From the IMG/VR virus record IMGVR_UViG_2695420649_000003: a stretch of 24,214 bases of DNA; one strand, 5' to 3'. Positions within the stretch are counted from its first letter, which is position 1. Every line of letters starts with the position of its first letter. Positions 1 through 23,601 of this stretch are shown here, piece by piece. The translations under genes were made by a program, and so were the position numbers. The notes below the pieces were generated by a model, which saw nothing but the letters and a program-made list of their open reading frames with translations, was not told the origin of the DNA and did not search any database. The DNA is from a virus. Taxonomy: Duplodnaviria; Heunggongvirae; Uroviricota; Caudoviricetes.

Positions 1-38
1 TGGAGCGGACAATCCAAATGGCGAATTACCGTCTTATA

Positions 39-365
39 TCACTGGCGCTGACACTTCATCACCTCCGGACGTAAATCACCATCCTTTGGTGCATTCAGAA
101 ACGCGTTCAGTGTCCCCGGTGCATCAGTCGGTGCCACATCAATATCCCCGACACGGGTTGGCTGCCAGCCGTTACAGTGAAGCGCAACCTCGTAATACCC
201 CGGCTCAGCCTCAATCACATAAGCACCGTTATTGTCCGTCACGCAAGTGGCAACAACGTGTGCCACAACGGTCGGACTGGTTCTTCTGGCCCGCAGTTCA
301 ATCGCACAATTTACGACAGGTTTACCCGCCCCATCTTTCAGTACACCTGAAATCTTTACTGCCAT
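39..365 (-). CDS. stf: Side tail fibre protein (Stf) N-terminal domain; ORF stops after ~108 aa, so truncated or disrupted
   Basis: Translation from the internal Met (MAVKISGVLKDGAGKPV...) matches the conserved N-terminus of lambda-type Stf as I recall it. It lies immediately downstream of lom, as in lambda. TGA stop at 39..41; no Stf-like continuation in the other two frames of the remaining 38 nt. Confidence 0.6.
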   Translation of the reverse strand: MAVKISGVLKDGAGKPVVNCAIELRARRTSPTVVAHVVATCVTDNNGAYVIEAEPGYYEVALHCNGWQPTRVGDIDVAPTDAPGTLNAFLNAPKDGDLRPEVMKCQRQ

Positions 366-428
366 ATTCACCCCACAAAAAGCCCGCCTGAACCAGCGGG
401 CAGTCATAACACTGTGTTACCTGGCTAA

Positions 429-1028
429 TCAGAACTTATAACCGACACCCACGATGAAACCGTCAGTGCGCCAGTCACCACTGCCGGAACCTTCATAAGC
501 AAGGTCAATGGCCACGGATTCGGTCGGGTTAAACTGCACGCCAGCCCCCCACGCCAGAGACGTGTTGCTGTGGCGACCGCCATCACTTCCGGTCAGCACA
601 TCGTGCGTTTTCCCCTTGTTGTCAGTTACGCGGAGATAATCCCCGGAGAAGGTCGACACACGGCTGTAAGCCACGCCCGCCATCGCATACGCGCTGAACC
701 ATTCATTCACGCGCACAGACGGCCCCGCCATCACGCTGAACCAGCGGTTACGCACGGAATCCTCATGCCAGCGGGTATCGCTGTAATGCGTTTTTTGCTC
801 ATCTTCAGCGTTGGCATAACTGAATGACGTAATCAGCCCCAGCGTGTCCGTAAACTCATAACGGTATTTCACGTTAATGCCCTTCAGGTCATCGCTGCCT
901 GGCATATCAGTATGGGTCTGAAGATACCCGGCGCTCAGCGTGGACTGATGTTCAGACGCCCATGCAGGCGCACCGGATACGGCCAGGCAAATGGCTGCGG
1001 ACAAAATGGCTGCACAAACTTTACGCAT
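429..1028 (-). CDS. lom: Lom outer-membrane beta-barrel protein (Ail/Lom family), 199 aa, full length
   Basis: ORF-track protein begins with the signal peptide MRKVCAAILSAAICLAVSGAPAWA and ends in ...GFIVGVGYKF, a typical beta-barrel terminus. Recognisable lambda Lom homologue in the expected position after J. Confidence 0.9.
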   Translation of the reverse strand: MRKVCAAILSAAICLAVSGAPAWASEHQSTLSAGYLQTHTDMPGSDDLKGINVKYRYEFTDTLGLITSFSYANAEDEQKTHYSDTRWHEDSVRNRWFSVMAGPSVRVNEWFSAYAMAGVAYSRVSTFSGDYLRVTDNKGKTHDVLTGSDGGRHSNTSLAWGAGVQFNPTESVAIDLAYEGSGSGDWRTDGFIVGVGYKF

Positions 1029-1052
1029 AATTACCTCTCGCTTTTCTGCAAT

Positions 1053-1076
1053 AAAAAAGGCACCATTTCTGGTGCC
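1053..1076 (-). terminator. Rho-independent terminator between J-like copy and lom (hairpin GGCACC/GGTGCC then T-run on the minus strand)
   Basis: Plus strand reads aaaaaa-GGCACC-atttct-GGTGCC; on the minus-strand transcript this is a 6-bp stem hairpin followed by UUUUUU. Sits 20 nt downstream of the J-like stop and upstream of the lom start. Confidence 0.55.
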
Positions 1077-1095
1077 CGTATCTGGGTTATAAAAT

Positions 1096-2202
1096 TCAGC
1101 TAATCGTGATGCCTGCAGTGGCTTTCTTCATCACCACAACCAGCAAATCGCTGATACTTGCTGTGGGATACCAGCCATTTACCAGCCATGCCGATACAGA
1201 AAACTCCAGCGTCATGTGACCGTGACCGGCAGGCATATCAATAACACCCGTATATATCAGCGTATTATCCAGGGTCGTTCGGTTATAAATTTCAGCACCG
1301 TTTTTCTTCACTATCAGGCGGCATGACGAATAAATATTGTTATTCTTCCGCTCATGTTTAGCACCGCGAAACGCCACCGCGGGAATAACAATTTGCCGAT
1401 CAAACGGCTGATCGTCATAAACCCTGACGGTAATGGTCCCTGATGGCCACCTCTCCGGTGCCCGGGAGTCCCGTGGGAAAGGTTTGCCCACTGTTTTAAC
1501 GAGATCGCCTTCAATCTGGTTCGCGGACAATTTTCCCAGAACCCGACAGTTCTTATTAATCGTGACGTTGTTGAGCGTCCCGGAGTTCGCGTTCACGTTA
1601 CCGCTGATATCGGCATTTTTCGCCGTCAGCCGTCCGCCAGGTGTCAGGGAAAATGCCGGAGGATTACCGCCGCTGGTAATGGTCGGAGCCGTCAGGCATT
1701 TCAGGAACACGTCGTTCATGAATATCTGATCGCCCTGACCAACAAACATCGGCTTTGTGTTGCCATTCGCAGGATTAATCATCGCAATCCTGTCTGCCGC
1801 CAGCAGCACCTGACTCTGCATTCCTGCTGGCGTATTCTCAATACCGGCACCGATACCCGCAATATAAAGGCGTCCGTCCTTCATCTGTTGCAGCTTCACA
1901 GCCCACATGCTGTTCAGGTTATTATTTGTATCAACCTGAACTTTCTGTATCTGCTGGATTGCAGCACTCTGATTTTCCAGTTTTTTATTGACGGTTTGCG
2001 TGATTTCATTGCTGACATTCGTAATGGACGTCCTGATTTCAGTCAGGTCCGGCGCAAGCTGACCGTTATCAATCTGCGTCCACAACTCCTTGCCGAGATG
2101 CGTTTTATTGATCAACCCTTTATAAAAATTCAGATAACCTTCTGCATCATCGCTCGCCCGACCGATGGCCTCCACAAATGCCGATTTGCCAACGGTGTTC
2201 AC
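1096..2202 (-). CDS. J: C-terminal portion (368 aa) of a second J-type tail-tip host-specificity protein with a distinct C-terminal domain; partial copy
   Basis: Protein aligns with the last ~370 aa of the full J at 4110..7607 (shared [37 protein letters not shown]..) but diverges over the last ~150 aa. Upstream continuity is broken by the N-run at 2357..2407. Confidence 0.75.
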
Positions 2203-2252
2203 ACTGCGAACGTAAAAATAATAATCATGGCCCGGCCTGATATTGATACTGG

Positions 2253-2511
2253 CGGCTATCCAGTACAGCGCCGTGCCAAGATAGCGTGCTGTGGTTTCAA
2301 CCTGCCTGATATCCGCAATCCGCTTTTCCGAGAACCAGAACTCAAACTGTACCGTCNNNNNNNNNNNNNNNNNNNNNNNNNNNNNNNNNNNNNNNNNNNN
2401 NNNNNNNCGGCTATCCAGTACAGCGCCGTGCCAAGATAGCGGGCGCTGGTTTCAACCTGCCTGATATCCGCAATCCGCTTTTCCGAAAACCAGAACTCAA
2501 ACTGCACCGTC
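2253..2511. repeat. 51-N gap (2357..2407) flanked by two near-identical 104-bp direct copies (2253..2356 and 2408..2511)
   Basis: Both flanks read cggctatccagtacagcgccgtgccaagatagcg...aactcaaactg(t/c)accgtc and differ at only a few positions. The left copy is identical to 5283..5386 in the full J gene. Pattern is typical of two overlapping contig ends joined with Ns. Confidence 0.85.
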
Positions 2512-3590
2512 GGGTCATATACAGCCAGTTTCGGGACCGCCGTTATCTGAAAATACCCCGGTATCAGTTCAATAGTGACAGGCGCTGCCGGTGCCGCAAT
2601 CCGGAACGATACCGACGCCGGATCGCCCTGCTGCCCCCGGGCATTTACCGCCCGGACTGTCAGACTGTAATTCCCCAGCGCCAGCTGCCTGAAGCGGTAT
2701 GTGGTTTCCGTCGTCCTGGCTGTGCTGACCAGCCGCTCACTGCCGTCGTCCGCTGCCACGGTCAGGCGAAGCAGGAAGCTCACACCCTTCACCACCTTCG
2801 GCGTGTCCCATCGCGCCAGCACCTGATATTCCCCGCTGTCTGCGGTGACTTCGGCAGTCAGGTGCTGCACCGCTGGCGGCGTGACACCATTCACCGTGCC
2901 GCGCCGGTCACCGTCAAAGTGTGCCCCGTTATCCACGATGGCCTCTTTTTCCGGCACATGCTGCACGGCGGTGATGGCATACGTGCCGTCGTCGTTCTCA
3001 CGGATACTCACGCAGCGGAACAGACGCTGGCGCAGCGTCGGCAGCTTCAGCCCCCACACGCTGTATTCTGCAACGCCGTCAGGAACCCGGCTCACTTTCA
3101 CCTTCACGCCGTCGGTGACGGACTGGACCTCCACGCTGACCGGATTGCCACTTCCGTCAACCAGGCTTATCAGCGTGGTACCGGAGGACGGCAGCGTGAT
3201 TTCACGGTCGAGCGTCAGCGTCCGGGTCTGGCTGTTCACCGCCAGTACGCGACCACCGGTGCTGATACCGGCATAATCATCATCGCAGATTTCAATGACA
3301 TCACCCGGTACATGGCGAAGCCCTTCTGCGCCCACGCTGAAGTCCACGGTCTGCGTTTCCAGCAGTTCCGTTTTAATCAGCCACAGCCCGGCTCGGTGTG
3401 CCTGCCCCCGGCTGGTACAGCCAAAGGCATCCATCTTCGTGACATTACGACCGTAACGGGCAATGGCCTGCGTATCCTCCACAAGCTCTGTCGCCGTCTC
3501 CCAGCCGTTATCTGGGTCAATCCAGTTCACCTCAACGGCATTATGGCGGTCCTTCAGGGCGCTGAAGCTGTAGCGGAACGGCGCGCCATC
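2256..3590 (-). pseudogene. J: Central portion of a J-like tail-tip gene (equivalent to J residues ~378-800), lacking its 5' end and interrupted by the N gap
   Basis: ORF 2256..3530 ([23 protein letters not shown]...) parallels the full J protein ([32 protein letters not shown]...). DNA homology to 6420..6471 continues to 3590, then stops abruptly at the 'n' at 3591. Frame is lost at the N-run. Confidence 0.7.
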
Positions 3591-3591
3591 N

Positions 3592-4039
3592 CATCACTTC
3601 CGGTCAGCACATCGTGCGTTTTCCCCTTATTGTCAGTTACGCGGATATAATCCCCGGAAAAAGTCGACACACGGCTGTAAGCCACACCCGCCATCGCATA
3701 CGCGCTGAACCATTCATTCACGCGCACAGACGGCCCCGCCATCACGCTGAACCAGCGGTTACGCACGGAATCTTCATGCCAGCGGGTATCGCTGTAACGG
3801 GTCAGCTGGCGATTCTTGTCTCCTGCATAGCTGAATGACGTCACCAGCCCCAGCGTATCCGTAAACTCATAACGGTATTTCACGTTAATCCCGTTCAGAT
3901 CATCACTGCCGGGAACGTTGGTCCGGGCATGAAGATACCCCGCGCTCAGCGTGGACTGATGTTCAGACGCCCATGCAGGCGCACCGGATACGGCCAGGCA
4001 AATGGCTGCGGACAAAATGGCTGCACAAACTTTACGCAT
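3592..4039 (-). pseudogene. lom: lom second allele, N-terminal ~149 codons only; 3' end replaced by J-like sequence at an 'n' junction
   Basis: Protein MRKVCAAILSAAICLAVSGAPAWASEHQSTLSAGYLHARTNVPGSDDLNGINVKYRYEF... is Lom-like up to ...THDVLTGSD, then the sequence switches to J-like DNA at position 3591. Differs from the lom at 429..1028 in a patch at residues ~36-80. Confidence 0.7.
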
Positions 4040-4063
4040 AATTACCTCTCGCTTTTCTGCAAT

Positions 4064-4087
4064 AAAAAAGGCGTCATTCCTGACGCC
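4064..4087 (-). terminator. Rho-independent terminator downstream of J (hairpin GGCGTCA/TGACGCC then T-run on the minus strand)
   Basis: Plus strand reads aaaaaa-GGCGTCA-ttcc-TGACGCC. Same architecture and position as the hairpin at 1053..1076 but with a different stem sequence. Confidence 0.55.
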
Positions 4088-4109
4088 ATTTATTGGGGTT
4101 ATAAATATT

Positions 4110-7100
4110 TCAACGAATACTGATGCCGGAAGCCGCTTTTTTGGTCACAATCACCGTACAGTCGGTGATATTGCCTGCCCCCTGATTGCCTTTCTGGAAA
4201 ATCTTAAACTCCAGAGTGACGCTACCACCACCACTAGGCATATCAATAACTGCACTGTAACTACCGGGAATGGCACCTTTAGTTTCTCTGGATGCGATTA
4301 ATACGCCGTTTTTGCGAACTTCAAAACCATAACCCGTGTATCGCGTGCCTCCTGGGTTATTTCCGCTCCCCGGATCGTCATACGCTATACCGTTAAAAAT
4401 AATGGGCGGAATAATAATCTGGCGGTCAAAGTTATGATCATCGCTTATGGTGACTGTAACCGTCCCGTTTGGTGTTTCCGTGTTACCCCACGTACCAGCC
4501 TGTTTCGGAAATGATTTGGATACAGCTTTAACGAAGTCACCTCTGACCTGAGTCGCCTCCAGCATGCCCTTAATCGTACAGTTTTCATTTACCGTGACAT
4601 TGTTGAGCGTCCCGGCGTTCGCATTCACACTGCCACTGATATCCGCATTTTTAGCGGTCAGCTTTCCGTCCGGAGTCAGGGAAAATGCCGATGGATTTCC
4701 ACCGCTGGTAATGGTGGGGGCCGTCAGGCGTTTCAGGAACACGTCGTTCATGAATATCTGATCGCCCTGACCAACAAACATCGGTTTTGTGTTGCCATTC
4801 GCAGGATTAACCATCGCAATCCTGTCCGCCGCCAGCAGCACCTGACTCTGCATGCCGTCAGGGGTGTTCTCAATACCGGCACCAATACCCGCGATATAAA
4901 GGCGTCCGTCCTGCATCTGCTGCAGCTTCACAGCCCACATGCTGTTCAGGTTATTATTTGTATCAACCTGAACCTTCTGTATCTGCTGAATTGCCGCACT
5001 CTGGTCTTCCAGTTTCTTATTGACGGTCTGCGTGATTTCATTGCTGACATCCGTAATGGACGTCCTGATTTCAGCCAGGTCAGGCGCAAGCTGACCGTTA
5101 TCAATCTGCGTCCACAGCTCCTGAGCCAGATGGGTTTTCCCTATCTCGCCTTTGAAAAAATCCAGATAACCGGATGCATCATCACTCGGCTGACCAACAG
5201 CCTCCACGAATGCCGATTTGCCAACGGTGTTCACACTGCGGATATAAAAGTAATAATCATGGCCCGGTTTGATATTGATACTGGCGGCTATCCAGTACAG
5301 CGCCGTGCCAAGATAGCGTGCTGTGGTTTCAACCTGCCTGATATCCGCAATCCGCTTTTCCGAGAACCAGAACTCAAACTGTACCGTCGGATCATAAACC
5401 GCAAGATGCGGCGTGGCGGTTATCTGAAAATAGCCCGGCGTCAGCTCAATCCGCGACAGCGCTGCCGGTGCGGCAATCCGGAACGATACCGACGCCGGAT
5501 CGCCCTGCTGCCCCCACGCATTTACTGCCCGGACTGTCAGCCTGTAGTTCCCCAGCGCCAGTTGTGTGAAGCGGTAAGTGGTTTCCGTCGTCCGGGCCGT
5601 GCTGACCAGCCGCTCACTGCCGTCATCCGCTGTTACGGTCAGACGGAGCAGGAAGCTCACGCCCTTCACCACCTTCGGCGTGTCCCAGCGCGCCAGCACC
5701 TGATATTCCCCGCTGTCTGCGGTGACTTCGGCAGTCAGGTGCTGCACCGCTGGCGGCGTGACACCATTCACCGTGCCGCTCTGGTCGCCGTCAAAGTGCG
5801 CCCCGTTATCCACGATGGCTTCTTTTTCCGGCACATGCTGCACGGCGGTGATGGCATACGTGCCGTCGTCGTTCTCACGGATACTCACGCAGCGGAACAA
5901 TCGCTGGTGCAGCGTCGGCAGCTTCAGCCCCCACACGCTGTATTCAGCAACACCGTCAGGAACACGGCTCACTTTTACCTTCACGCCGTCGGTGACGGAC
6001 TGGACCTCCACGCTGACCGGATTCCCCTGCCCGTCAACCAGGCTTATCAGCGTGGTGCCGGAGGATGGCAGCGTGATTTCACGGTCGAGCGTCAGCGTCC
6101 GGGTCTGGCTGTTCACCGCCAGCACGCGCCCGCCGGTGCGGATACCGGCATAGTCATCATCGCAGATTTCAATGACATCGCCCGGTACATGACGAAGCCC
6201 TTCAGCACCCACGCTGAAATCCACGGTCTGCGTCTCCAGCAGTTCCGTTTTAATCAGCCACAGCCCGGCGCGGTGTGCCTGCCCCCGGCTGGTACAGCCA
6301 AAGGCATCCATCTTCGTGACGTTACGACCGTAACGGACAATGGCCTGCGTATCCTCCACAAGCTCTGTCGCCGTCTCCCAGCCGTTATCCGGGTCAATCC
6401 AGTTCACCTCAACGGCATTATGGCGGTCTTTCAGGGCGCTGAAACTGTAGCGGAACGGCGCGCCATCATCCGGCATCACCACATTACTGCGGTTATAGGC
6501 CCACACCTTATCCGACTGTCGGTCCTGCACGAACGTCAGCGTCTGCCCGTTCCATACCGGCATACAGCGCATCGCCGAGCAGAAATCACTGAGCACATCC
6601 CACGCCTTGCGCTGTGTGGTCAGCCAGGCATTACAGGTGATGCGCGGCTCCGTGCTGCCAAAGCCGTCCGGCACCGACTGGTCACAGTACTGGCCGATGA
6701 CATACAGCGCCCATTTATCCACATCTGCCGCACCAAGACGTTTCCCCATGCCATAGCGCGGATGGGTCAGCATATCCCACAGACACCAGGCCATGTTGTT
6801 GCTGTATGCCGGTTTTAACGTTCCGTCCCAGATACCGCTGTATTGCCGCGTCTGCGGGTTATAGTTCGACGGCACCTGCAGAATGCGCCCGCGAAGATGA
6901 TAATTACGGCTCACCTGCTGGCTGCCGAACTGCTCCGAATCCACCTGTACGCCGACCAGTGCCGTGTTCGGGTAGCACTGTTTCACATCGATGATTTCGG
7001 TGTACGACGACCAGAGCGTTTTGTTCTGCAGCTGGTCTGTGGTGCTGTCCGGCGTCATTCTGCGCATCCGGATATTAAACGGGCGCGGCGGCAGGTTATC

Positions 7101-7607
7101 CACCACCACCGAGGCCAGATACTGCGAGGTGGTTTTGCCCTTAATGGTGATGTCTTTTTCCGTCACCCAGCCACCGTTACGCTGTATCTGAACCAGCAGG
7201 CGAACTTCAGACGGATTCCTGTCTCCCTTTGAGGTGGTTTCCACCAGTGCCTGTACACCGAAGGTAAAACGCAGTCGGTCAATGTTTGCCGACGTGATGG
7301 TCCGGGTGATCGGCGTGTCATATTTCACTTCCGTACCCAGCACCGTCTCGGAGCCGGAGGATTCAAATCCCTCCGGCGGTGACTGCTCCTGCTCACCTGC
7401 CCGGAACACCACCGTGACGCCGGAGATGTTGGTATTCCCCTCACTGTCCAGCACCGGCGTACTGTTCAGCAGCACGCTTTTTAATCCATCCACCGGACCT
7501 TCAACCGGCCCTTCGCTGATGGCATCGATCACACTCAGCAGCTGCGTGGACTTCAGGTTGTCCTTCGCTTCGCGCGGGGTATGCCCCTTACTGCTGCCTT
7601 TACCCAT
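4110..7607 (-). CDS. J: Tail tip / host-specificity protein J (central tail fibre), 1165 aa
   Basis: N-terminus [34 protein letters not shown]... matches lambda gpJ as I recall it. Lies after I in lambda order and contains fibronectin-type-III-like repeats. The last ~155 aa differ from the partial copy at 1096..2202. Confidence 0.95.
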
Positions 7608-7667
7608 TCGTCATGCTCCATAAACGATAAAACCGCCCGGAGGCGATTTCACATAAAACATTTTGCA

Positions 7668-8339
7668 TCAGCGACCAATCACCACAACCTGACCACCGTC
7701 CCCTTCGTCTGCCGTGCTGATCTCCTGAGATACCACACGTGACCCCACGCGCATTTCACCATACAGAACAGGCATAACATTGCCCTGGGCAACCATGTTA
7801 TCCAGTGAGGAGAAATAGGTGTTCTGCTTACCGTTATCCGTTGTCTGTGTGCGGGGAGTTCTGGCTTTCGGTGCCAGCATCTGAGCCACACCGCCGAGCA
7901 CCATACTGGCACCGAGAGAAAACAGAATGCCGGTCATACCACCGGCACCAATGGCAGCCCCCCATGCTGCAAGGGTGGCTCCGGCGGTAAAGAATGATCC
8001 GGCAATGGCGGCTGCTCCCAGGACAATCTGGAATACACCACCTGACTTGGCCCCGGCGACTCTGGGAACAATATGAATCACAGCGCCGTCAGGCAGAGCC
8101 TCATGTAACTGTGCCGTTAATCCGGACGTGCTAACATCCTGCCCGGCAATACGCACCTGATACCAGCCGTCGCTCAGCTTCTGACGAAACGCAGGGAGCT
8201 GTGTGGCCATCGCCCGGATGGCTTCGGCACCCGTTTTCACACGAAGGTCGATGCGGCGGCCAAATCGTTGCAAATCCCCGTAAAGGCAGATGCGTGCCAT
8301 GCCCGGTGACGCCAGAGGGAGTGTGTGCGTCGCTGCCAT
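7668..8339 (-). CDS. I: Tail assembly protein I, 223 aa
   Basis: Length and position match lambda gpI. Overlaps the 3' end of K by ~103 nt in another frame, as in lambda. Hydrophobic Gly/Ala-rich C-terminal half. Confidence 0.9.
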   Translation of the reverse strand: MAATHTLPLASPGMARICLYGDLQRFGRRIDLRVKTGAEAIRAMATQLPAFRQKLSDGWYQVRIAGQDVSTSGLTAQLHEALPDGAVIHIVPRVAGAKSGGVFQIVLGAAAIAGSFFTAGATLAAWGAAIGAGGMTGILFSLGASMVLGGVAQMLAPKARTPRTQTTDNGKQNTYFSSLDNMVAQGNVMPVLYGEMRVGSRVVSQEISTADEGDGGQVVVIGR

Positions 8340-8980
8340 TTGTCGGTATACCTCTCTCGTTTGCTCAGTTGTTCAGGAATATGGTGCAGCAGCTCGCCGT
8401 CACCACAGTAAATGGCGGCATGATTCGGCACCGATGAACCAAAACAGCACAGCAGCACATCGCCCGGCTGCGCCGCTGACAACGGCACCTGATACAGCCC
8501 TGTGGCCTCCAGATTATCCAGATAGAGATTCTGACCGTGACGCCACCAGTCATCCTCACGATGAAAATCCGGCATCTCAATCCCCGCCAGATGGTAAGCA
8601 TCCCGGAACAGCGTGTAACAGTCCGTCACCCCGTGCTCAAAGCGCCGCCCGGTAAGATGTGGCACACAGCGGAACTTGTGAATCGCCCCCCGGCAGACCA
8701 GCCACCACGGCAAATCACTCTGCACCTGCAGCCGCCGGTCGGCCTCACTCAGCCAGGGCAGACCACCGGGGTGGCTGTGGACCAGTGCCACAATCTCACC
8801 CTGCATCTCTGCCTGCAGCCAGTCTTCCGGCGACATACGGAAATACGCCTCCGGCTCACCGGAGATATTCACGCAGGGGAAATATCTTTCCCCCTCCGGC
8901 GTTCTTACCACGAAGCCGCACGACTCCGCTGGAGCACATCGCCGGGCGTGCGCCAGAATCGCTGATTCTGTCTCTGTCAT
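8237..8980 (-). CDS. K: Tail tip assembly protein K, MPN/JAMM plus NlpC/P60 two-domain protein (247-aa long form)
   Basis: ORF starts 6 nt after the L stop with MTETESAILAHARRC.... Contains a JAMM motif (HSHPGGLPWLSEAD) and Cys/His NlpC/P60-like motifs (DCYTLF, NHAAIY). An alternative internal start at Met49 (8836) would give the 199-aa product. Confidence 0.85.
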   Translation of the reverse strand: MTETESAILAHARRCAPAESCGFVVRTPEGERYFPCVNISGEPEAYFRMSPEDWLQAEMQGEIVALVHSHPGGLPWLSEADRRLQVQSDLPWWLVCRGAIHKFRCVPHLTGRRFEHGVTDCYTLFRDAYHLAGIEMPDFHREDDWWRHGQNLYLDNLEATGLYQVPLSAAQPGDVLLCCFGSSVPNHAAIYCGDGELLHHIPEQLSKRERYTDKWQRRTHSLWRHRAWHASAFTGICNDLAAASTFV

Positions 8981-8985
8981 GGGAT

Positions 8986-9684
8986 TTACTGCGAAAGTTT
9001 GTTAATGGAAAGGAAGCCGCCAAAGTTGCCGACGTTATTGCGAAACTTACAGCCACTCAGGCATTTGCTGCATTTATCCTTCGTGATGTCGGACGTTGGC
9101 TGGTCATATTCATCCGCGACCGCCGGACCGTGATAACCGCACTCATCGCCGCGATAGGTCCAGGTGCAGGTGTTGGCCAGCATGATACGTCCCGGAAAAA
9201 CAGCGCCATCTGTTTCCGTCGGCGTGGACAGTACAAAAGAGGCACTCACCGCGCTCAGTTCGCTGCACTGCTCAATGCGCCAGCGGCTGATCACCTCCTG
9301 CTCCGGATCGGCGTCACTGTTTCCGTTGACGAAGTTCACCGCATCCAGAAAACGGGCGTAAACCTTACGCCGGACCACCGTTCCGCCGACCAGACTCTGT
9401 AGATCTTCCGCCATCCCGGTGACCATACCGTACAGGTTAGAAACCATCAGCGTGGGGCGCGTACTGGTGCCTTTGCCATTCAGTTCAAAACCACTCCCCT
9501 GAATGGGATACGGCTGATACTGTCGCCCCTGCCAGGTGACCGGCTCACCTTTTTCGTTCTGCTCATTACAGAAAAAATAACGTTCTCCACCGACCTCTGT
9601 CAGATCGATTTCCCAGAGCACCACGCTGGCCGACTGCTCCGCACGGGTGCATTCATTCAGTGTTTCCTGCCGGATATCCTGCAT
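8986..9684 (-). CDS. L: Minor tail protein L, 232 aa
   Basis: MQDIRQETLNECTRAEQSASVVLWEIDLTEVGGERYFFCNEQNEKGEPVTWQGRQYQPYPIQGSGF... matches lambda gpL as I recall it, between M and K in lambda order. Confidence 0.93.
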   Translation of the reverse strand: MQDIRQETLNECTRAEQSASVVLWEIDLTEVGGERYFFCNEQNEKGEPVTWQGRQYQPYPIQGSGFELNGKGTSTRPTLMVSNLYGMVTGMAEDLQSLVGGTVVRRKVYARFLDAVNFVNGNSDADPEQEVISRWRIEQCSELSAVSASFVLSTPTETDGAVFPGRIMLANTCTWTYRGDECGYHGPAVADEYDQPTSDITKDKCSKCLSGCKFRNNVGNFGGFLSINKLSQ

Positions 9685-10013
9685 CAGTTCACCACCTGTT
9701 CAAACTCTGCGCTGAACTCAACACGCAGCATACTGACCCGCGACGACCATTTTGCGCAGGTCACCTTTATCTGCCGCCACTCATAAGGCGGCGTCCACAG
9801 AAAGGCTTTCCAGCCCCCGTGCTCTTCCAGAAACGACTCCAGTACCATGGCCTCCTCACGGGGGACAGAAAGCGTCACGCTGTACGTTTTCAGGTTGGCA
9901 TTCAGCCCGGCAGGCGCTCGCTGGGAATAGCCATCACCAAAGCGCACCTTTCTTACAGAAGGGGCCGAAGCCACATCCATACCGGGTTTCACTTTCCAGC
10001 GGAAGGTTTTCAT
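9684..10013 (-). CDS. M: Minor tail protein M, 109 aa
   Basis: MKTFRWKVKPGMDVAS...SAEFEQVVN matches lambda gpM as I recall it. Start overlaps the H stop (ATGA), end overlaps the L start by 1 nt, as in lambda. Confidence 0.93.
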   Translation of the reverse strand: MKTFRWKVKPGMDVASAPSVRKVRFGDGYSQRAPAGLNANLKTYSVTLSVPREEAMVLESFLEEHGGWKAFLWTPPYEWRQIKVTCAKWSSRVSMLRVEFSAEFEQVVN

Positions 10014-12571
10014 CGTCCACCTCCGGAGAACAGGCCACCATCACGCATCTGTGTCTGAATTTCATCACGGGCACCCTTGCGGGCCATGTCATACACGGCC
10101 TTCATCATCTGTGGACCTGGCAGACCATTCGTACCGTCGTTCTGAATCACCACGTGATTGTTCTGATTAAAATTAATGCCTTCAGCCCGCCGCATCTGCG
10201 CCGGACTTCCGGCACCGCCCACATAACCACCTTCCGCATAGCCGCGCATCAGCCGGTAGAGATTCCCCACGCCAATCCGGCTGGTTGCCTCCTTCGTGAA
10301 GACAAATTCACCACGGTGAACAATCCCCGCTGGCTCATATTTGCCGCCGGTTCCCGTAAATCCCCCGGTTGCAAAATGGAATTTCACCGCAGCGGCCTGA
10401 ATGGCTGTACCACCTGACGCGGATGCGCCGCCACCAACAGCCCCGCCAATGGCGCTGCCGATACTCCCGACAATCCCCACCATTGCCTGCTTAAGCAGAA
10501 TTTCTGTCATCATGGACAGCACGGAGCGGGTGAAGCTGCGCCAGTTCTGTTCACTGCCGGTCAGCATCGCCGCCATATTCTGTGCAATACCATCAAAGGT
10601 CTGCGTGGCTGCACTTTTAACCTGTGACATACTGTCCGTGGCGCTCTCTTCCCACTCACTCCAGCCGGACTTCAGGCCTGCCATCCAGCTCCCGCGAAGC
10701 TGGTCTTCAGCCGCCCAGGTCTTTTTCTGCTCTGACATGACGTTATTCAGCGCCAGAGGATTATCGCCATACTGTTCCTTCAGGCGCTGTTCCGTGGCTT
10801 CCCGCGCTGCCTGCCGGTCAGTCAGCCCCCGGTTTTTCGCATCAATGGCTGCCCGTTTTGCCCGTTGCTGCTGTGCGAATTTATCCGCCTGCTGCGCCAG
10901 CGCATTCAGGTGCTCCTGATACGTAACCTTGTCACCAAGTGCAGCCAGCTGGCGTTTGTACTCCAGCGTCTCGTCTTTATGCGCCAGCAGGGATTTCTCC
11001 TGTGCGGACAGCTGGCGACGTTGTGCCGCCTCCTCCAGTACCGCGAACTGACTTTCTGCCTTCCACAAATCCCGGCGCTGCTGGCTGATTTTCTCATTCG
11101 CTCCGGCATGCTTCTCCAGCGTCCGGAGTTCTGCCTGAAGCGTCAGCAGGGCCGCATGAGCACTGTCTTCCTGACGATCGCCCGCATACACCTTCACGCC
11201 GGACTGTTTCGGCTTTTTCAGCGTCGCTTCATAATCCTTTTTCGCCGCCGCCATCAGCGTGTTGTAATCTGCCTGCAGGATTTTTCCGTCTTTCAGTGCC
11301 TTGTTCAGTTCTTCCTGACGGGCGGTATATTTCTCCAGCGGCGTCTGCAGCCGTTCGTAAGCCTTCTGCGCCTCTTCGGTATATTTCAGCCGTGACGCTT
11401 CGGTATCGCTCTGCTGCTGCGCATTTTTGTCCTGTTGACGCTGTTGATCTACCCTCTTTTGGGCTGCATCCCGCTCCAGGCGTTTTTTTTCACGATCATC
11501 CCAGTAACGCGCCCGTGCTTCATCGTTAACGAAATAATCATCCTTGCGCAGATTCCAGATGTCGTCTGCTTTCTTAAACGCAGCCTCTGCCTTAATCAGC
11601 ATCTCCTGCGCGGTATCAGGACGACCAATATCCAGCACCGCATCCCACATGGATTTGAATGCACGTGCAGTCCTGTCTGCCCAGGTCTCCAGCGTGCCCA
11701 TGTTCTCTTTCAGGCGGCGGGTCTGGTCATCAAACCCTTTCGTTGCGGCCTCGTTCGCCGCCTGCAATGCCCCGGCTTCATCGCCGGAACGCTGCAACTG
11801 AGCAACATACGCAATCTGCTCCGCCGTCACGTTATGGAACTGGCGTGCCATCGCCGTCAGCCCCGACGTCGGGTCTGTGGTCAGCTTCCCGAAGGCTTCA
11901 GCGACCTTGTCCACCTCCACGCCGGATGCATAGGAGAAACGCGCCACACTCTGGCTGATGGACGCAATCTGAGCCTCACCGCTTACCCCCGCCTTAACCA
12001 GTGCGCTGAGTGACTCGCTGGTCTGGTTAAACGTCAGCCCTGCCGCCTGCCCGGCTCTGGACAGGACCAGCATACGATCTGCCGTCAGTCCCGCCTGATT
12101 ACCGGAAAGGACCAGCGTTTTGTTGAAATCGGACAGGGTTGAGTTGCCCTGATACCAGGCATACGCCAGCGCACCGGTCGCCACCGCCAGCGAGGTGGCC
12201 CCCACCATCGGCAGGGTGATCGCGCCGGCAAGCCCCCTGAACATGGGGATCATCCCGCCGAAGGAGTCCTTAACCTGACCACCCTGTTGCAGCAGGATCA
12301 GCCAGGGATTCTGCCCCCCTGCAAGCTGCGTGGCCACGTCGGTGAACTGTGCAGGCAGCATACGCATGGCGGCTTTATACTGCCCGACGGAAATCCCCGC
12401 TTTCTGTGCAGCCAGCGCCTGTCGGCTCAGCGACTGTTCAACGACTGCCGCTGTTTTTTTCGCATCACTTTCCGTACCGGAAAAATGACGCCTGACTCTG
12501 GCCATCTGCTCGTCAAATCTGGCCGCATCCAGACTCAAATCAACGACCAGATCGCCTACCGGTTCAGCCAT
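10010..12571 (-). CDS. H: Tail tape measure protein H, 853 aa
   Basis: Same length as lambda gpH. Long coiled-coil-rich central region (Q/R/E/A/K-rich), Gly-rich hydrophobic segment near the C-terminus. Position between T and M. Confidence 0.95.
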   Translation of the reverse strand: MAEPVGDLVVDLSLDAARFDEQMARVRRHFSGTESDAKKTAAVVEQSLSRQALAAQKAGISVGQYKAAMRMLPAQFTDVATQLAGGQNPWLILLQQGGQVKDSFGGMIPMFRGLAGAITLPMVGATSLAVATGALAYAWYQGNSTLSDFNKTLVLSGNQAGLTADRMLVLSRAGQAAGLTFNQTSESLSALVKAGVSGEAQIASISQSVARFSYASGVEVDKVAEAFGKLTTDPTSGLTAMARQFHNVTAEQIAYVAQLQRSGDEAGALQAANEAATKGFDDQTRRLKENMGTLETWADRTARAFKSMWDAVLDIGRPDTAQEMLIKAEAAFKKADDIWNLRKDDYFVNDEARARYWDDREKKRLERDAAQKRVDQQRQQDKNAQQQSDTEASRLKYTEEAQKAYERLQTPLEKYTARQEELNKALKDGKILQADYNTLMAAAKKDYEATLKKPKQSGVKVYAGDRQEDSAHAALLTLQAELRTLEKHAGANEKISQQRRDLWKAESQFAVLEEAAQRRQLSAQEKSLLAHKDETLEYKRQLAALGDKVTYQEHLNALAQQADKFAQQQRAKRAAIDAKNRGLTDRQAAREATEQRLKEQYGDNPLALNNVMSEQKKTWAAEDQLRGSWMAGLKSGWSEWEESATDSMSQVKSAATQTFDGIAQNMAAMLTGSEQNWRSFTRSVLSMMTEILLKQAMVGIVGSIGSAIGGAVGGGASASGGTAIQAAAVKFHFATGGFTGTGGKYEPAGIVHRGEFVFTKEATSRIGVGNLYRLMRGYAEGGYVGGAGSPAQMRRAEGINFNQNNHVVIQNDGTNGLPGPQMMKAVYDMARKGARDEIQTQMRDGGLFSGGGR

Positions 12572-12998
12572 ACCGGACTCCTCCTGCGATCCCTTCTGAT
12601 ACTGTCATCAGCATTACGTCATCCTCCGTCATGTCCGCCACATCCGGGGAAGCGGGGATAACTTCATTCCCGTCCGGGCCAAAGCGGACACCTCCGGCAA
12701 GCCCTGCCGCTTTCTGCATCAGCACATCATCTTCAGGCTCTTCGTCAGCCTCGCGCCGGTTCAGCAGACTGAAATCCAGCGGATGCATCTCCGGATCGCT
12801 GAAAAACAGGCTGAGCACGGTGTACGTCAGCCCGGAAAAGTGCATATCCAGCAGAACATCATGAAAATAATGGGTACTGTAAAAGCGGTGCCAGTCGGCA
12901 TACTCCGTGGATGACATCCCGGCAAGCATGGCGCGCCAGTCGGGTCGCCCCATCTCACGCGCCAGTTTCAGGGCAAAACTCAGCTCACCGTCGAACAC
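12564..12998 (-). CDS. T: T reading frame, expressed as the G-T fusion tail assembly chaperone by -1 programmed frameshift
   Basis: Frame -1 relative to G, beginning at the slippery site. Encodes VFDGELSFALKLAREMGRPDWRAMLAGMSSTEYADWHRFY..., matching the lambda gpGT C-terminal part as I recall it. No independent start or RBS expected. Confidence 0.85.
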   Translation of the reverse strand: MFDGELSFALKLAREMGRPDWRAMLAGMSSTEYADWHRFYSTHYFHDVLLDMHFSGLTYTVLSLFFSDPEMHPLDFSLLNRREADEEPEDDVLMQKAAGLAGGVRFGPDGNEVIPASPDVADMTEDDVMLMTVSEGIAGGVRYG

Positions 12999-13402
12999 TT
13001 TCCCGCAGAAACAGGCTCTGCAGGCCCGGCGTCCTCTGCCTGTTCAGGAGCATCATTCACCACAAACTCATACATACCGGACAGCCGGTACACCACGTTT
13101 TCAGCATGAGAAATTGCCTCTGTGGGCCAGGTGGTAAGCACTTCCTGCTCAATCTGTTTAACGGCTTCATTCATGGACGGCATCTGCGTCTTCTTCGGAT
13201 GGTTATGCCACAGGGACATCGCAACCACAAAAGCGCCGGTTCTGATGGCGTCTTCCACAGTAAACTTCCGGTTGCTGTCTGACTCCGCCTGTTCTGCCTG
13301 CCGTTTCATCAGGTCGAGATGCTCAATACGCTGCAGGGCTGACAGTTCAGAAAGCGTGACGGTCACACCGTTATGTTCAAATGATTCGGTTTTCAGGAAC
13401 AT
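12980..13402 (-). CDS. G: Tail assembly chaperone G, 140 aa
   Basis: MFLKTESFEHNGVTVTLSELSALQRIEHL...SAGKCSTVS matches lambda gpG as I recall it. Confidence 0.93.
   Translation of the reverse strand: MFLKTESFEHNGVTVTLSELSALQRIEHLDLMKRQAEQAESDSNRKFTVEDAIRTGAFVVAMSLWHNHPKKTQMPSMNEAVKQIEQEVLTTWPTEAISHAENVVYRLSGMYEFVVNDAPEQAEDAGPAEPVSAGKCSTVS
12998..13004 (-). other. Programmed -1 ribosomal frameshift slippery heptamer G GGA AAG (G to G-T)
   Basis: Plus strand CTTTCCC at 12998..13004 is the reverse complement of GGGAAAG. It sits at codons Gly-Lys six codons before the G stop, exactly as in lambda G/GT. Confidence 0.85.
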
Positions 13403-13417
13403 CGCTGACTCTCCGGA

Positions 13418-14158
13418 TTAACTGGCGGTGACGTTGATTTCTGCAACCGCAGCAAACTCACCATTACCAGATACGACCGGAATGTTGACCTTGCCTGCAG
13501 CAACACCTTTCACGGTGATGGTCATACCACTGACCGACACGGTGGCTTTTGTTTTATCCGCAGACACCGCACGGAAGCTCTTGTCGGTTGCGCCATCCGG
13601 CTGGAATGCCACGGTCAGCGTGGTGCTCTGCCCTTTCACTACGGAAGCACTGGCGGGTGTCACCGTCATGCCGGTCGTCGCCGTCACCGTGCTGCGATCT
13701 TCTGCCATCGACGGACGTCCCACATTGGTGACCTTCACCGTGCGGGTAATCACCTCCTTCGCCGTCACCGCCTTACCGATACTGCTGACCCAGCCACGGA
13801 ACACATCGACCGTGCCGTTCGGGAAGCGGATTTTATAGGCACGGGTATCACCTTCATTAAACCACGCCAGCAGCGCCTGCTGCCCCTGCTCTCCGGGCAT
13901 CCACGCCAGCGTGAAGCTGGTATCTCCGGCAGATTTCTGCCCCTGCCCGGTCGCAGTCCAGTCTGCATCTTCATCATCGAGATAGCTGTCGTCATAGGAC
14001 TCAGCGGTCAGTTCGCCGGGCGTCAGGTCTTTAACTTTTGCCAGACGCGACCAGTCAACGTCTGAAAGCGGGTTCGCATAAGGGTCACCGCTCCCCTTAT
14101 AAACCCACAGGGTGGTCCCGGCACCTTTCACCGGCATTGTAGGATTTGGTACAGGCAT
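13418..14158 (-). CDS. V: Major tail protein V, 246 aa, with C-terminal Ig-like domain
   Basis: Chosen start [24 protein letters not shown]... matches lambda gpV; the ORF-track ORF extends 10 codons upstream into U. C-terminal ~80 aa is Thr/Val/Ser-rich, consistent with a Big_2-type Ig-like domain. Confidence 0.93.
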
Positions 14159-14165
14159 AGCGTCC

Positions 14166-14561
14166 TCACATTTCATAGATAATGACATAAGTCAGATCGG
14201 CTGAACTCCACAGGCCCGCATCATCGTCGCGCCGGTAGTCATAGCCGCTGGCCACCATACTGGTGATCAAATCTGACAGTGCCGGGATATCGCTCATCAC
14301 AGGATAAATCCGGGACTCCATCCACGAATCCAGCTCTGAATCCGGCACCTGAGCAGGCAGGAAAACTTCAATATGCAGCTCCGCCTGCCAGGTATCGCTG
14401 TCCAGCTCTTCGCCCGTGTATTCAGCGCCGGTGAGATAAACGGCAATTGCCGGAAAATCTTCCTCATCAAAAACAGCGGGGCGACCATCAAAAAGCGTCG
14501 CCCCGGTGTCATGCTTCTCCAGTGCATCCAGTACGGCTGCACGGAGTTCAGTATGTTTCAT
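14166..14561 (-). CDS. U: Tail terminator protein U, 131 aa
   Basis: [78 protein letters not shown]... matches lambda gpU as I recall it. Confidence 0.93.
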
Positions 14562-15136
14562 CGCTTTATTACCATTCTCAGTTGATGCTGCAGCGCATAG
14601 CCCAGCTCTTTCGGAAGACGTTCACGCCGTATCCGTTCAATATTCTGTTTAAACGCCGTGGTCAGCGGCACCGCCATCGGGATTTTCACCACATCAATGG
14701 GGTAACGGTTTTTCCCGGCCACACGCTGCATAACATGCCACCGGCCGTTTTTCAGTTGCTGAATAAACGCGCCGGGAATACGACGGTTACCCACCACAAG
14801 CACGCTGCCGCCACCTTTCAGGGATGAACGCTGCCCCTTTTTATGACGCCTGCGGCGGGACAGGACAACCCGCGCATTACCCAGCTTGATTACGGGCAAA
14901 TCCCCCCGGTTAACTTTGATTCTGGCCTGCGGATTTTTGACCGTGGCCCTTTTCAGCCTGGCCCTTTCCTTTACCAGTTTCCGGCGTACCTTTGTCTCAC
15001 GGGCAACCTGTGACGCAGACTGCGATATCGCGGATGAAGCAACGCGGTTAATGGCCATTGCGGCGGCACCGGGCACCGCCGTTTTGCTGATACGGCTGAG
15101 GTTTTCAACGGCCTGCTCAAGACCTTTTATGGCCAT
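14558..15136 (-). CDS. Z: Tail completion protein Z, 192 aa
   Basis: MAIKGLEQAVENLSRISKTAVPGAAAMAINRVASSAISQSASQVARETKVRRK... matches lambda gpZ as I recall it. Overlaps the U start by 4 nt. Confidence 0.93.
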   Translation of the reverse strand: MAIKGLEQAVENLSRISKTAVPGAAAMAINRVASSAISQSASQVARETKVRRKLVKERARLKRATVKNPQARIKVNRGDLPVIKLGNARVVLSRRRRHKKGQRSSLKGGGSVLVVGNRRIPGAFIQQLKNGRWHVMQRVAGKNRYPIDVVKIPMAVPLTTAFKQNIERIRRERLPKELGYALQHQLRMVIKR

Positions 15137-15147
15137 ACATCCCCCTT

Positions 15148-15501
15148 TCAGCGGCGACGGTTAACGGCAGGCGGTACGCCCCGTCCAAGCCAGAGATGAC
15201 AACTTCCGCCATCATCCGGCGAAACCCGATCTACCCAGAAATTTTCCTCACCGATGGTCAGCGTGTCTCCACGCCGCAGCTGCCGCACCTCATCAGTCCG
15301 GACAAACAGGGACGGGCTGGAGCCTTCAACGCGCACGCCCTGTCCGGCATAGCTGATATTTTCAGGGTCATCAAAAACACCACGTATCACCGCACCTGAC
15401 TGCTCACCGGATGTCATGGTGGCTGACGTTCCCATGTACCCGCGTATCGTTTCATCGGCGCGGGCAATGGCAGCATCGAACAGGTTATCGAAATCAGCCA
15501 C
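15148..15501 (-). CDS. FII: Head-tail joining / head completion protein FII, 117 aa
   Basis: MADFDNLFDAAIARADETIRGYMGTSATMTSGEQSGAVIRGVFDDPENISYAGQGVRVEGSSPSLFVRTDEVRQLRRGDTL... matches lambda gpFII as I recall it. Confidence 0.93.
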   Translation of the reverse strand: MADFDNLFDAAIARADETIRGYMGTSATMTSGEQSGAVIRGVFDDPENISYAGQGVRVEGSSPSLFVRTDEVRQLRRGDTLTIGEENFWVDRVSPDDGGSCHLWLGRGVPPAVNRRR

Positions 15502-15512
15502 AGCGCCTCCCG

Positions 15513-15911
15513 TTATTGCATTCTGGCCAGGCCGCGCTCTGTCATTTCGGCTGCCACACCGGCAGAGACACGAAACGCCGTTCCCGGCAGCACAAATGCC
15601 ACAGGTTTATCCCGCGTGGCGTGAAGTGCATCAGTATGCAGCGTCACCAGTGCCACGACCGTGACCAGTTCAGCCGTATCCTGAATCACGGTATCCGGCT
15701 GCGCTGATACCACCTCATTTTCATGCCCGGTCAGCACATTTTCCCGGCTGAGAGGGGTGTCCTGACCGGCAGTTTCATCCGTGTCATCAAGCTCTTCTTC
15801 CAGCTCTGCCACACGAAGCGCCAGTTCTTCTTTCGTTCCCGTCAAACTGACATCGCGGTTCAATTGCTCACCCAGCTCCTGAAGACGGGCAATCAGTTCA
15901 TCTTTCGTCAT
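15513..15911 (-). CDS. FI: DNA packaging protein FI, 132 aa
   Basis: Chosen start MTKDELIARLQELGEQLNRDVSLTGTKEELALRVAELEEELDDTDETAGQ... matches lambda gpFI; the ORF-track ORF has 13 extra upstream codons. Confidence 0.9.
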   Translation of the reverse strand: MTKDELIARLQELGEQLNRDVSLTGTKEELALRVAELEEELDDTDETAGQDTPLSRENVLTGHENEVVSAQPDTVIQDTAELVTVVALVTLHTDALHATRDKPVAFVLPGTAFRVSAGVAAEMTERGLARMQ

Positions 15912-15952
15912 GAACTCCTCCACAGAGAGAAAATGGCCCCGAAGGGCCATGA

Positions 15953-16978
15953 TTACGCCAGTTGAACGGACACGAACTCATCAGGATCAGCCAGCAGCAT
16001 CAGCGGTGCTGACTGAATCATGGTGAACTCACGCGCCGGATCGCCGGTGGTCACCCAGTTTTTCGGGTAACGGGCAGAAGCGTTAATGCCTTCGCGCTGT
16101 GCGTCCGCATCCTGAATGCAGCCATAGGTGCGCAGACCGCGAGCCTGAGTGTTCCCCAGCACCATCGTGTTGTCCGGCAGGAAGTTCTTTTTGACGCCGT
16201 TTTCCACGTACTGTCCGGAATACACGACGATGGCCACATCGCCATACATTCCCTTATAGGACACCGCTTTGCCCAGGTCTTTTACCGCTGTCTCCAGCTC
16301 GGAATGAGAGCCGCGACGGGTATCCAGCTTCTCCTTGACGGCTTTGAAGGAACGGAACAGCGCCCAGCCTTTCGGGTCAAACACGATGATATTCACCACA
16401 CCGCTGGCGTTCAGCGCGTAGGCTTCGATATCGTCGGTCGGGTCATACGTGGACTTGTCACGCTTGCTCCACTCCGTGACGCCGGACTGTGTGATGTTGT
16501 TCGCCGCACTGCGGCCCATATCCACCTCAACCGGATCGAAGGCTTCACCGGTCATGGTGTATTTGCCCTTGAGCACGGCAGAAACTGCCTGCATCTCTTC
16601 GACCTGAGCAATGGCCAGCTCTTCGTCACGCATGTTCTGCATGATGATGCGACGGCGGCGGTAAGCCGGGTCCGCCAGATTCTGCGGATCTTCATCCGGC
16701 AGGCGACGCAGGGTCATCTGCGGATTCACCTCATGCTTGGGTTTGACATATCCCGGCGTAAATTCAGAGGTGGAGCCGCCACGGGAACGGATAACCTCAC
16801 CGGAAACAATCGGCGAAACGTACAGCGCCATGTTTACCAGTCCCGGAATTTGTGAGAGATAGACTTTCTCCGTAGTGAAGGGATAGCTCTCACGGAAAAA
16901 GAGACGCAGAAACAGCGGATCAAACTTAAATTTCTGCTCATTTGCCGCCAGCAGCTGGGCGGTTGTGTACATCGACAT
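15953..16978 (-). CDS. E: Major capsid protein E, 341 aa
   Basis: Chosen start MSMYTTAQLLAANEQKFKFDPLFLRLFFRESYPFTTEKVYLSQIPGLVNMALYVSPIVSGEVIRSRGG... matches lambda gpE; the ORF-track ORF has 9 extra upstream codons. Confidence 0.95.
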   Translation of the reverse strand: MSMYTTAQLLAANEQKFKFDPLFLRLFFRESYPFTTEKVYLSQIPGLVNMALYVSPIVSGEVIRSRGGSTSEFTPGYVKPKHEVNPQMTLRRLPDEDPQNLADPAYRRRRIIMQNMRDEELAIAQVEEMQAVSAVLKGKYTMTGEAFDPVEVDMGRSAANNITQSGVTEWSKRDKSTYDPTDDIEAYALNASGVVNIIVFDPKGWALFRSFKAVKEKLDTRRGSHSELETAVKDLGKAVSYKGMYGDVAIVVYSGQYVENGVKKNFLPDNTMVLGNTQARGLRTYGCIQDADAQREGINASARYPKNWVTTGDPAREFTMIQSAPLMLLADPDEFVSVQLA

Positions 16979-17033
16979 AAAAAAATCCCGTAAAAAAAGC
17001 CACACAGGCGGCCTTTAGTGATGAAGGGTAAAG

Positions 17034-17366
17034 TTAAACGATGCTGATTGCCGTTCCGGCAAACACGGTCCGTTTTTTCGTCTCGTCGCTGGCAGCCTCC
17101 GGCCAGAGCACATCCTCATAACGGAACGTGCCGGACTTGTAGAACGTCAGTGTGGTGCTGGTCTGGTCAGCAGCAACCGCAAGAATGCCAACGGCAGCAC
17201 CGTCGGTGGTGCCATCCCACGCAACCAGCTTACGGGTGGAGGTGTCCAGCATCAGCGGGGTCATTGCAGGCGCTTTCGCACTCAATCCGCCGGGCGCGGT
17301 TGCGGTATGAGCCGGGTCACTATTGCCCAGCGGCTGGTAATGGGTAAAGGTTTCTTTGCTCGTCAT
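17034..17366 (-). CDS. D: Head decoration protein D, 110 aa
   Basis: Chosen start [43 protein letters not shown]...FAGTAISIV matches lambda gpD as I recall it. Confidence 0.95.
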
Positions 17367-17375
17367 AAACATCCC

Positions 17376-17981
17376 TTACACTGGTGTGTTCAGCAAATCG
17401 TTAACGGCATCAGATGCCGGGTTACCTGCAGCCAGCGGTGCCGGTGCCCCCTGCATCAGACGATCCAGCGCAGTGTCACTGCGCGTCTGTGCACTCTGTG
17501 GTGCTGCGGCCAGAATACGGCGGGCCGTTTCCACGGTCATACCGGGGGTTTCGGCCAGCACGCGTGCCTGTTCTTCGCGTCCGTGAGCCTCCTCACAGTT
17601 GAGGATCCCCATAATGCGACTGTTTTCTGCCGCAACCGCTGCGGTGATCTGCGCGTTCACGTCCGGCTGCGCCGCGCTGGCGTTCTCGCCCTCCGTCGCT
17701 TGCACCACGCCAGTAACGTCAGCCTGCGAAGCAGTGGCTGAAACAGTTGTTGATTGAGTCTCTTTGGTCATTCGCCCTCCTGAGAGACGGGATTTACGTG
17801 CATCCAGTGCATCACGCATGACGGTGATCGCATCGGTACTGTTAACAAGTTCATCAGCCAGTCCGGCATCAATGGCCTCCTGACCGCTGTACACTGCAGC
17901 CTCGGTATCCAGCACAGCCTGCACGGACAGGCCGGTATATGCCGACACCTTCTGTGCAAACATCCGGCGGGTTGCATCCAT
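17376..17981 (-). CDS. nu3: Scaffolding protein Nu3, in-frame internal start within C, 201 aa
   Basis: Internal Met (MDATRRMFAQKVSAYTGLSVQ...) at the codon equivalent to C residue 239, sharing the C stop. Corresponds to the nested C/nu3 arrangement known in lambda. Confidence 0.75.
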   Translation of the reverse strand: MDATRRMFAQKVSAYTGLSVQAVLDTEAAVYSGQEAIDAGLADELVNSTDAITVMRDALDARKSRLSGGRMTKETQSTTVSATASQADVTGVVQATEGENASAAQPDVNAQITAAVAAENSRIMGILNCEEAHGREEQARVLAETPGMTVETARRILAAAPQSAQTRSDTALDRLMQGAPAPLAAGNPASDAVNDLLNTPV

Positions 17982-23544: not shown

Positions 23545-23601
23545 AGCAATTTAGATAATCGTGCAGACTACGCCCCCTCATATCACATGGAAGGTACTAC
23601 A

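Follow-up and report, generated by a model that had tools for sequence, protein, structure and literature searches.

Two Shigella sonnei prophages very likely joined in one chimeric scaffold: the stf-lom-J'-lom'-J order of record CXCA01000059.1

Introduction

The sequence analysed here carries two tail-tip gene sets that can be compared with the J-lom-stf module of lambda. As in the lambda module, each J gene is followed by an Ail/Lom gene and then by a side-tail-fibre gene, and the Pfam domains of lambda gpJ recur as a set in both J genes. Compared with the lambda module nothing here is unusual, and the only oddities of the sequence appear to come from its assembly.

The second point of reference is the way in which short-read drafts are assembled. 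The Sanger pipeline consists of Velvet, followed by SSPACE down to five linking read pairs, and then GapFiller with 120 iterations (Page et al. 2016, PMC5320598). SSPACE and GapFiller are greedy and "can lead to false joins" (PMC5320598). The 299 S. sonnei assemblies of that study have a mean of 405 contigs; the portion of its accession list at hand includes S. sonnei prefixes beginning with CWW, CWZ and CXA, and CXCA is not among the prefixes listed in that portion (PMC5320598). GapFiller extends the gap edges base by base, using k-mers with a 29-nt overlap and a majority vote for ambiguous bases (PMC3446322). Closure of a gap needs overlapping extensions and an inserted length within 50 nt of the estimate; the gaps left open are repeats with alternatives in equal ratio (Boetzer & Pirovano 2012, PMC3446322).

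Against this background, the stf-lom-J'-lom'-J arrangement of the record was analysed. It is very likely an assembly artefact and not a biological feature.

Organisation of the record

The window, which means the whole stretch of DNA that was analysed (24,214 nt), is the entire WGS record CXCA01000059.1 (GCA_001255655.1). The source of this record is a short-read draft of Shigella sonnei. The non-ACGT characters of the window are solely the 51-N run and the single N listed in Table 1. All of the tail-region genes (J, lom', J', lom, and stf'; 7607..39) are on the minus strand. A sequence-only reading of the window had given the order stf-lom-J'-lom'-J. The open reading frames and Pfam domains bear it out, with stf truncated, J' amounting to the 3' two-thirds of its gene and lom' to the 5' 448 nt.

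Above the gathering threshold, the Pfam domains of J are PF24801, PF13550, PF24421, PF24489, PF09327, and PF12421, and that of Lom is PF06316. J1, the J protein of prophage Y, has a sub-threshold fn3 match besides its six J-specific domains. Contig piece 1 encodes the tail-tip fibre and the C-terminal receptor-binding domain of J_X, the J protein of prophage remnant X; contig piece 2 also contains PF24421 and PF24489, and ends within the Phage-tail_3 domain. In a direct-repeat scan, the two lom-J units were only 81-96% identical, with no relation between their receptor-binding ends. A DUF1398 protein of 141 aa is encoded on the opposite strand (23587-24012, +), past the small terminase gene and close to the right end.

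Table 1. Features of the tail region of record CXCA01000059.1 and positions with paralogue alleles.
Feature	Position	Strand	Remarks
IS21-family element, outer end	1..53	.	Truncates stf_X; record begins inside repeat
stf_X' (side tail fibre, N-terminal 122 aa, remnant X)	39..407	-	PF08400 phage_tail_N, 1.5e-36
lom_X (full-length Ail/Lom, 199 aa, remnant X)	429..1028	-	PF06316, 4e-129
Contig piece 1, 3' third of J_X	1096..2356	-	PF09327 and PF12421
51-N scaffold gap	2357..2407	.	True distance -104 nt (ends overlap)
Contig piece 2, middle of J_X (codons about 381-774)	2408..3590	-	PF13550 from profile position 51
Single-N scaffold join, prophage-X versus prophage-Y sequence	3591	.	Apparent false adjacency
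lom_Y, 5' 448 nt (intact prophage Y)	3592..4039	-	Apparently cut at contig end
J1 (full-length tail-tip protein J, 1165 aa, prophage Y)	4110..7607	-	Six J-specific Pfam domains
Swapped positions in lom_X	987, 990		Carry lom_Y alleles
Swapped positions, end of contig piece 1	2287, 2290, 2291, 2332, 2350		Carry J1 alleles
Swapped positions, contig piece 2	2856, 2862		Carry J1 alleles
Swapped positions in J1	6858, 7005		Carry J_X alleles

Source loci in S. sonnei

The larger part of the window belongs to prophage Y. Positions 3592..17607 are 99.98% identical at the DNA level to an intact lambdoid prophage of S. sonnei Ss046 (CP000038.1), and to other S. sonnei genomes. Ss046 encodes exactly the J1 protein, for which the assembly collection lists 4,293 blocks; the genuine 160-aa product of lom_Y was found on 861 contigs in the protein collection. 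The lom_Y of S. sonnei encodes 160 aa versus 199 aa, with 117 nt absent between two CGCCAG direct repeats. This deletion site (about 14040-14060 in locus L010 of Ss046) is just outside contig 3 of the window. The C-terminus of the lom_Y product is altered, and its predicted beta-barrel is probably non-functional.

Prophage remnant X is an IS-flanked M-L-K-I-J-lom-stf' block, which adjoins znuABC. The exact lom_X protein occurs in complete S. sonnei genomes beside a full-length J of 1159 aa, and stf_X' is 99.7% identical to the S. sonnei locus L014. Homologues of the stf/lom/J block in E. coli align only from window position 54; the S. sonnei loci run from the sequence of 1..53 into an istA-type transposase (rve/Mu-transpos_C_2). 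In the finished S. sonnei genome CP019689.1 (loci L018 and L019), the X module M-L-K-I-J-lom is present twice, 9.4 kb apart, with IS copies between. Within E. coli, the X block is most closely related (99%) to prophages in CFSAN029787 and O121 201805972 (L003 and L004). In these prophages the tail-fibre genes have ipaH effector genes immediately downstream, and the strains look enteroinvasive.

The 51-N run and its flanks

According to the sequence-only reading, the 51-N run is flanked by two 104-nt copies of one J segment that differ at a few bases, as overlapping contig ends of different alleles would. Both parts of this description are correct. Positions 2253-2356 and 2408-2511 are identical at 99 of 104 nt, which is far beyond chance, and they differ at the five positions given for the end of contig piece 1 in Table 1. 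The left copy has the J1 allele and the right copy has the J_X allele. In the left copy, all five mismatches are alleles of the paralogue J1, and the 119 nt of 2238-2356 are 100% identical to J1 5270-5388 in the same record; the right copy shows no difference from native J_X. Therefore, reads from the wrong J gene went into the end of contig 1.

Comparison with finished genomes gives the true distance between the two flanks. An 801-nt query across the N-run spans 646 nt of contiguous J gene in finished E. coli genomes, and in every finished genome examined (E. coli and S. sonnei) the J gene is contiguous and 155 bp shorter across this site. Since the excess of 155 nt equals the 51 N plus one 104-nt copy, the N-run is an unmerged 104-nt overlap, with a true length of -104. 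Window 1-2356 matches L014 11028-8673 (99.7%), and 2408-3590 matches L014 8776-7594 (99.83%); contig pieces 1 and 2 overlap by 104 nt on this locus, inside one full-length J. By these alignments, 1..2356 and 2408..3590 are true neighbours in the same J_X gene, with their ends left unmerged.

Paralogue alleles

Compared with the S. sonnei references, the record has 11 differences, and all 11 are alleles of the paralogue in the other prophage (Table 1). Alignment of the true loci showed that the interior swaps are complete difference blocks, each with 29 or more identical nt to its left and to its right. The six interior swaps (987, 990, 2856, 2862, 6858, and 7005) are probably consensus errors from k-mer gap filling. 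Both the bounds of at least 29 identical nt and the allele switches fit this origin, because GapFiller extends by a 29-nt overlap and by majority vote.

The same alleles might also have been produced by real short-patch gene conversion between X and Y, and in that case the joins would still be artefacts. The identical stretch of at least 29 nt on either side of every swapped block also matches the minimal homology for RecA-dependent exchange. However, five of the 11 positions belong to the contig end that is present twice, and there the native allele stands in the other copy. Single-SNP tracts of less than 86 nt, at four to five places and in both directions within one isolate, would also be unusual. 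Moreover, the four Y-locus references compared at 6858 and 7005 are all without the alleles of the window, and the window differs from six X-locus references at the same two positions, 2856 and 2862. Gene conversion is therefore considered an unlikely source of these alleles, and consensus errors are preferred.

The single N at 3591

A lone 'n' between J-like and mid-lom sequence had also been reported from the sequence alone, and it is confirmed at 3591. To its left, the sequence ends ...GGCGCGCCATC inside J, where the Pfam Phage-tail_3 domain is cut at profile position 51; to its right, the sequence begins CATCACTTCCGG inside lom. The bases catc are present on both sides, as had been stated, and the shared stretch is 4 bases long and not 5. 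A terminal overlap of at least 4 bases between unrelated ends has a chance of about 0.005 (1 in 200). In the S. sonnei references, the native contexts are ...GCCATC followed by G after the break in J_X, and ...CCGT followed by CATCAC after the break in lom_Y. Each CATC is thus native to its own gene, and nothing is duplicated at the join. Target-site duplication by an IS element was rejected as the source of CATC...CATC, since the two sides are different genes, each with a native CATC.

The positions of the two contig ends are informative. The match to Ss046 ends exactly at 3592, and the match to locus X ends exactly at 3590. The base after 3590 is G in J_X and A in J1; the base before CATCACTT is T in lom_Y and C in lom_X. 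Because these neighbouring bases differ between the paralogues, both contig ends at 3591 halt at a paralogue SNP. A stop at a paralogue difference is the behaviour of greedy extension that meets competing alternatives. For a biological break to fall at both paralogue SNPs, the chance would be roughly 0.07 x 0.04, as calculated from the observed mismatch densities.

The source loci are also distant from each other. In CP104423.1, which is complete and has both loci, the homologue of 3592 is at 1,310,465 and that of 3590 is at 1,994,709, on the same strand. These loci are 684 kb apart in direct orientation, so a genuine junction would equal a 684-kb deletion. In 12 Y loci, lom_Y runs on for 300 nt beyond the break, where its native 3' end and after it stf_Y follow; the thirteenth (L013, a short short-read contig) ends 22 nt beyond the same lom position. 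In all 10 X loci (11 copies), J_X runs on for 300 nt beyond the break, into its own 5' third. The earlier suggestion that 1..~3590 was stitched from separate contigs is thus supported. Its further statement, that this part need not be contiguous with the main prophage, also holds, and very probably the two are not contiguous at all; as a refinement, 1..2356 and 2408..3590 are true neighbours. From the sequence comparisons, the false join would be the one at 3591, and the truncation of lom_Y at 3592 would be a contig end, with no biological breakpoint.

There is no continuous called sequence across 3591, where the N is present and both CATC copies are kept. With the N left in, the gene caller made a unique 161-aa protein containing X. 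Deletion of the N and of one CATC puts lom' in frame with J' and gives a fusion ORF of more than 590 aa (window 3554-4039). Where SSPACE estimates an overlap that cannot be detected in the sequences themselves, it inserts a single n. A literature search for this single-n convention found no statement of it.

The junction was also searched for elsewhere. The junction pattern GGCGCGCCATC-N{0,8}-ACTTCCGGTCAGC, which retrieves the window as a positive control, had no match in the GTDB representative genomes, IMG/VR, or the JGI metagenomes; since S. sonnei genomes are rare in these collections or missing from them, this negative finding by itself carries little weight. With a query of 601 nt across 3591, the junction of the window was found in none of 5,426 complete E. 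coli genomes, among which only E. coli S42 covers both halves in one place, with other break points. At the protein level, an exact look-up of the 161-aa ORF across the N gave a single record, CXCA01000059.1, and the junction ORF (with the N as A, C, G, or T, or deleted) was absent from 15 billion proteins. For a 91-aa peptide of the merged junction, no protein was found to span both halves (coverage at most 70%), and none of its matches had both PF06316 and PF13550.

These results bear on the possibility that the junction is real in the isolate, with illegitimate recombination at CATC having joined lom_Y to the middle of J_X. The N would then be merely an uncalled base or an unmerged 4-nt overlap, and the junction would read GGCGCGCCATC(N)CATCACTT or GGCGCGCCATCACTT. 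Behind the intact J-lom' of prophage Y there would be a second, promoterless J 3' cassette, together with lom_X and stf_X'. Such a silent second receptor-binding cassette would be like the finished arrangement of E. coli S42, and its recombination with the expressed J could swap the cassette in, thereby changing the phage host range. The scaffolder must have had read-pair links for the join, and the improbable sharing of CATC by the two ends, the in-frame Lom'-J' fusion obtained when the CATC copies are merged, and the analogous stf-lom-J'-lom'-J of the complete E. coli S42, which has other break points, would agree with a real junction. However, a deletion of 684 kb would be needed, both break points are at paralogue SNPs, the junction is absent from every collection searched and from the 15 billion proteins, and the same record mixes reads of both prophages at 11 positions. 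A real junction is therefore regarded as very unlikely.

A related proposal is that a third S. sonnei locus has a genuine lom'::J' (junction sequence GGCGCGCCATCACTTCCGGTCAGC). Its flanks, identical to X and Y, would have collapsed into the contigs, and its read pairs would have made the join. Such a locus would explain together why the contigs end where they do, why they overlap by 4 nt, and why read pairs supported the join. In S. sonnei at least a third lom allele exists (P0003, found on 55 contigs). However, this allele departs from lom_Y within 25-50 nt of the break point, and the lack of a protein matching both halves of the 91-aa peptide counts against such a locus. A third locus is likewise regarded as very unlikely. 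E. coli S42 and C3 had suggested a genuine tandem duplication, which was rejected for the window, as its 'copies' are two distant S. sonnei loci.

Proposed origin of the scaffold

It is highly probable that the window is a chimeric scaffold of two similar S. sonnei prophages, composed of three contigs with an unmerged overlap. The comparisons show the source of each piece, the 104-nt overlap, the alleles that come from paralogues, and that the junction does not recur in the collections searched. Which pipeline was used, how the gap stayed open, and how the false link came about, we infer. Judging from its CXCA accession series, which neighbours the prefixes in the available portion of the published list, the record was very probably made by the Sanger Velvet, SSPACE, and GapFiller pipeline.

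Contigs 1 (1-2356) and 2 (2408-3590) are adjacent parts of J_X, whose 104-nt overlap was never merged. The end of contig 1 would have been lengthened by reads from the J paralogue in prophage Y, and the result would be a 51-N 'gap' with duplicated, slightly different flanks. The closure rule of GapFiller, which accepts only lengths within 50 nt of the estimate, would explain why the 104-nt overlap stayed open. Contig 3 (3592-24214), the late region of the intact lambdoid prophage Y, would then have been tied to contig 2 via one N, despite the hundreds of kilobases between them in finished genomes.

Some observations fit this scaffold account less well. The join needs several read pairs, and the true neighbours of the contig ends have no homology to the partner contig; the CATC shared by the ends, with its chance of about 0.005, also speaks against it. 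The stop at 3590 needs a further assumption. At this position, J_X and J1 share only 23 identical nt, which is below the default 29-nt overlap of GapFiller; J1 alone thus leaves the stop unexplained, and a third J copy is assumed. Another J copy in the genome is probably responsible for it. When a third J or lom copy was sought through a gpL protein look-up, the matches were solely prophage Y and relatives from E. coli. Branching of the de Bruijn graph where J_X and J1 diverge was also considered as the cause of the contig end at 3590 and is a misfit, as the identical stretch before the break measures only 23 nt and longer ones within contig 2 caused no break. Collapse of the J 5' thirds, with contig 2 hanging off contig 3, was rejected because J_X and J1 differ at 69 of 1,293 positions (5%) to the right of the break.

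Consequences for use of the record

The importance of these findings is one of data hygiene only. Taken at face value, the record implies a duplicated tail-tip/lom module and a truncated lom. Three spurious gene calls have already been produced, namely the 161-aa Lom with X, a 230-aa ORF, and a 419-aa J fragment, and the record holds 11 base errors derived from paralogues. For prophage typing, surveys of J or of receptor-binding domains, and SNP calling, the record should be split at 3591, 2253-2407 should be collapsed, and the swapped positions should be distrusted. No conclusion on the biology of tail-fibre cassettes should be drawn from record CXCA01000059.1.

Comparison with known systems

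The joins of the window resemble those made by SSPACE and GapFiller in the Sanger pipeline, with N at read-pair joins and open gaps in repeats that have alternatives. The same pipeline was applied to the 299 S. sonnei assemblies mentioned above, which have neighbouring accession prefixes in the portion of the list at hand.

A similar gene order is found in E. coli S42 (NZ_CP010236.1, region 380,244-382,823), where stf and lom are followed by a J' without its 5' end, a lom' without its 3' end, and a full J, with a period of about 3 kb. In S42 (L001 3506-9517), the tandem lom-J'-lom'-J is free of N, and its period is 3,007 nt at 97.97% identity (61 mismatches, no gaps). This duplication could be a genuine additional J/receptor-binding cassette, or else an artefact of early PacBio assembly. 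The tail region of E. coli C3 (NZ_CP010119.1, L005 3548-12064), whose accession is in the same series as that of S42, is messy; besides a 'tail tip domain' ORF of 3,741 nt and part of a tape-measure gene, it contains two lom fragments and a J without its 5' end.

The S42 arrangement differs from that of the window in several respects. It is continuous without N, and its copies are 98% identical over 3,005 nt, in contrast to 81-96% in the window. The break points are 213 nt (J) and 89 nt (lom) from those of the window, and the S42 junction is TCGCA-AT-GCTAC, with a 2-nt filler. The 'copies' of the window, unlike the tandem units of S42, are two loci that lie far apart in finished genomes.
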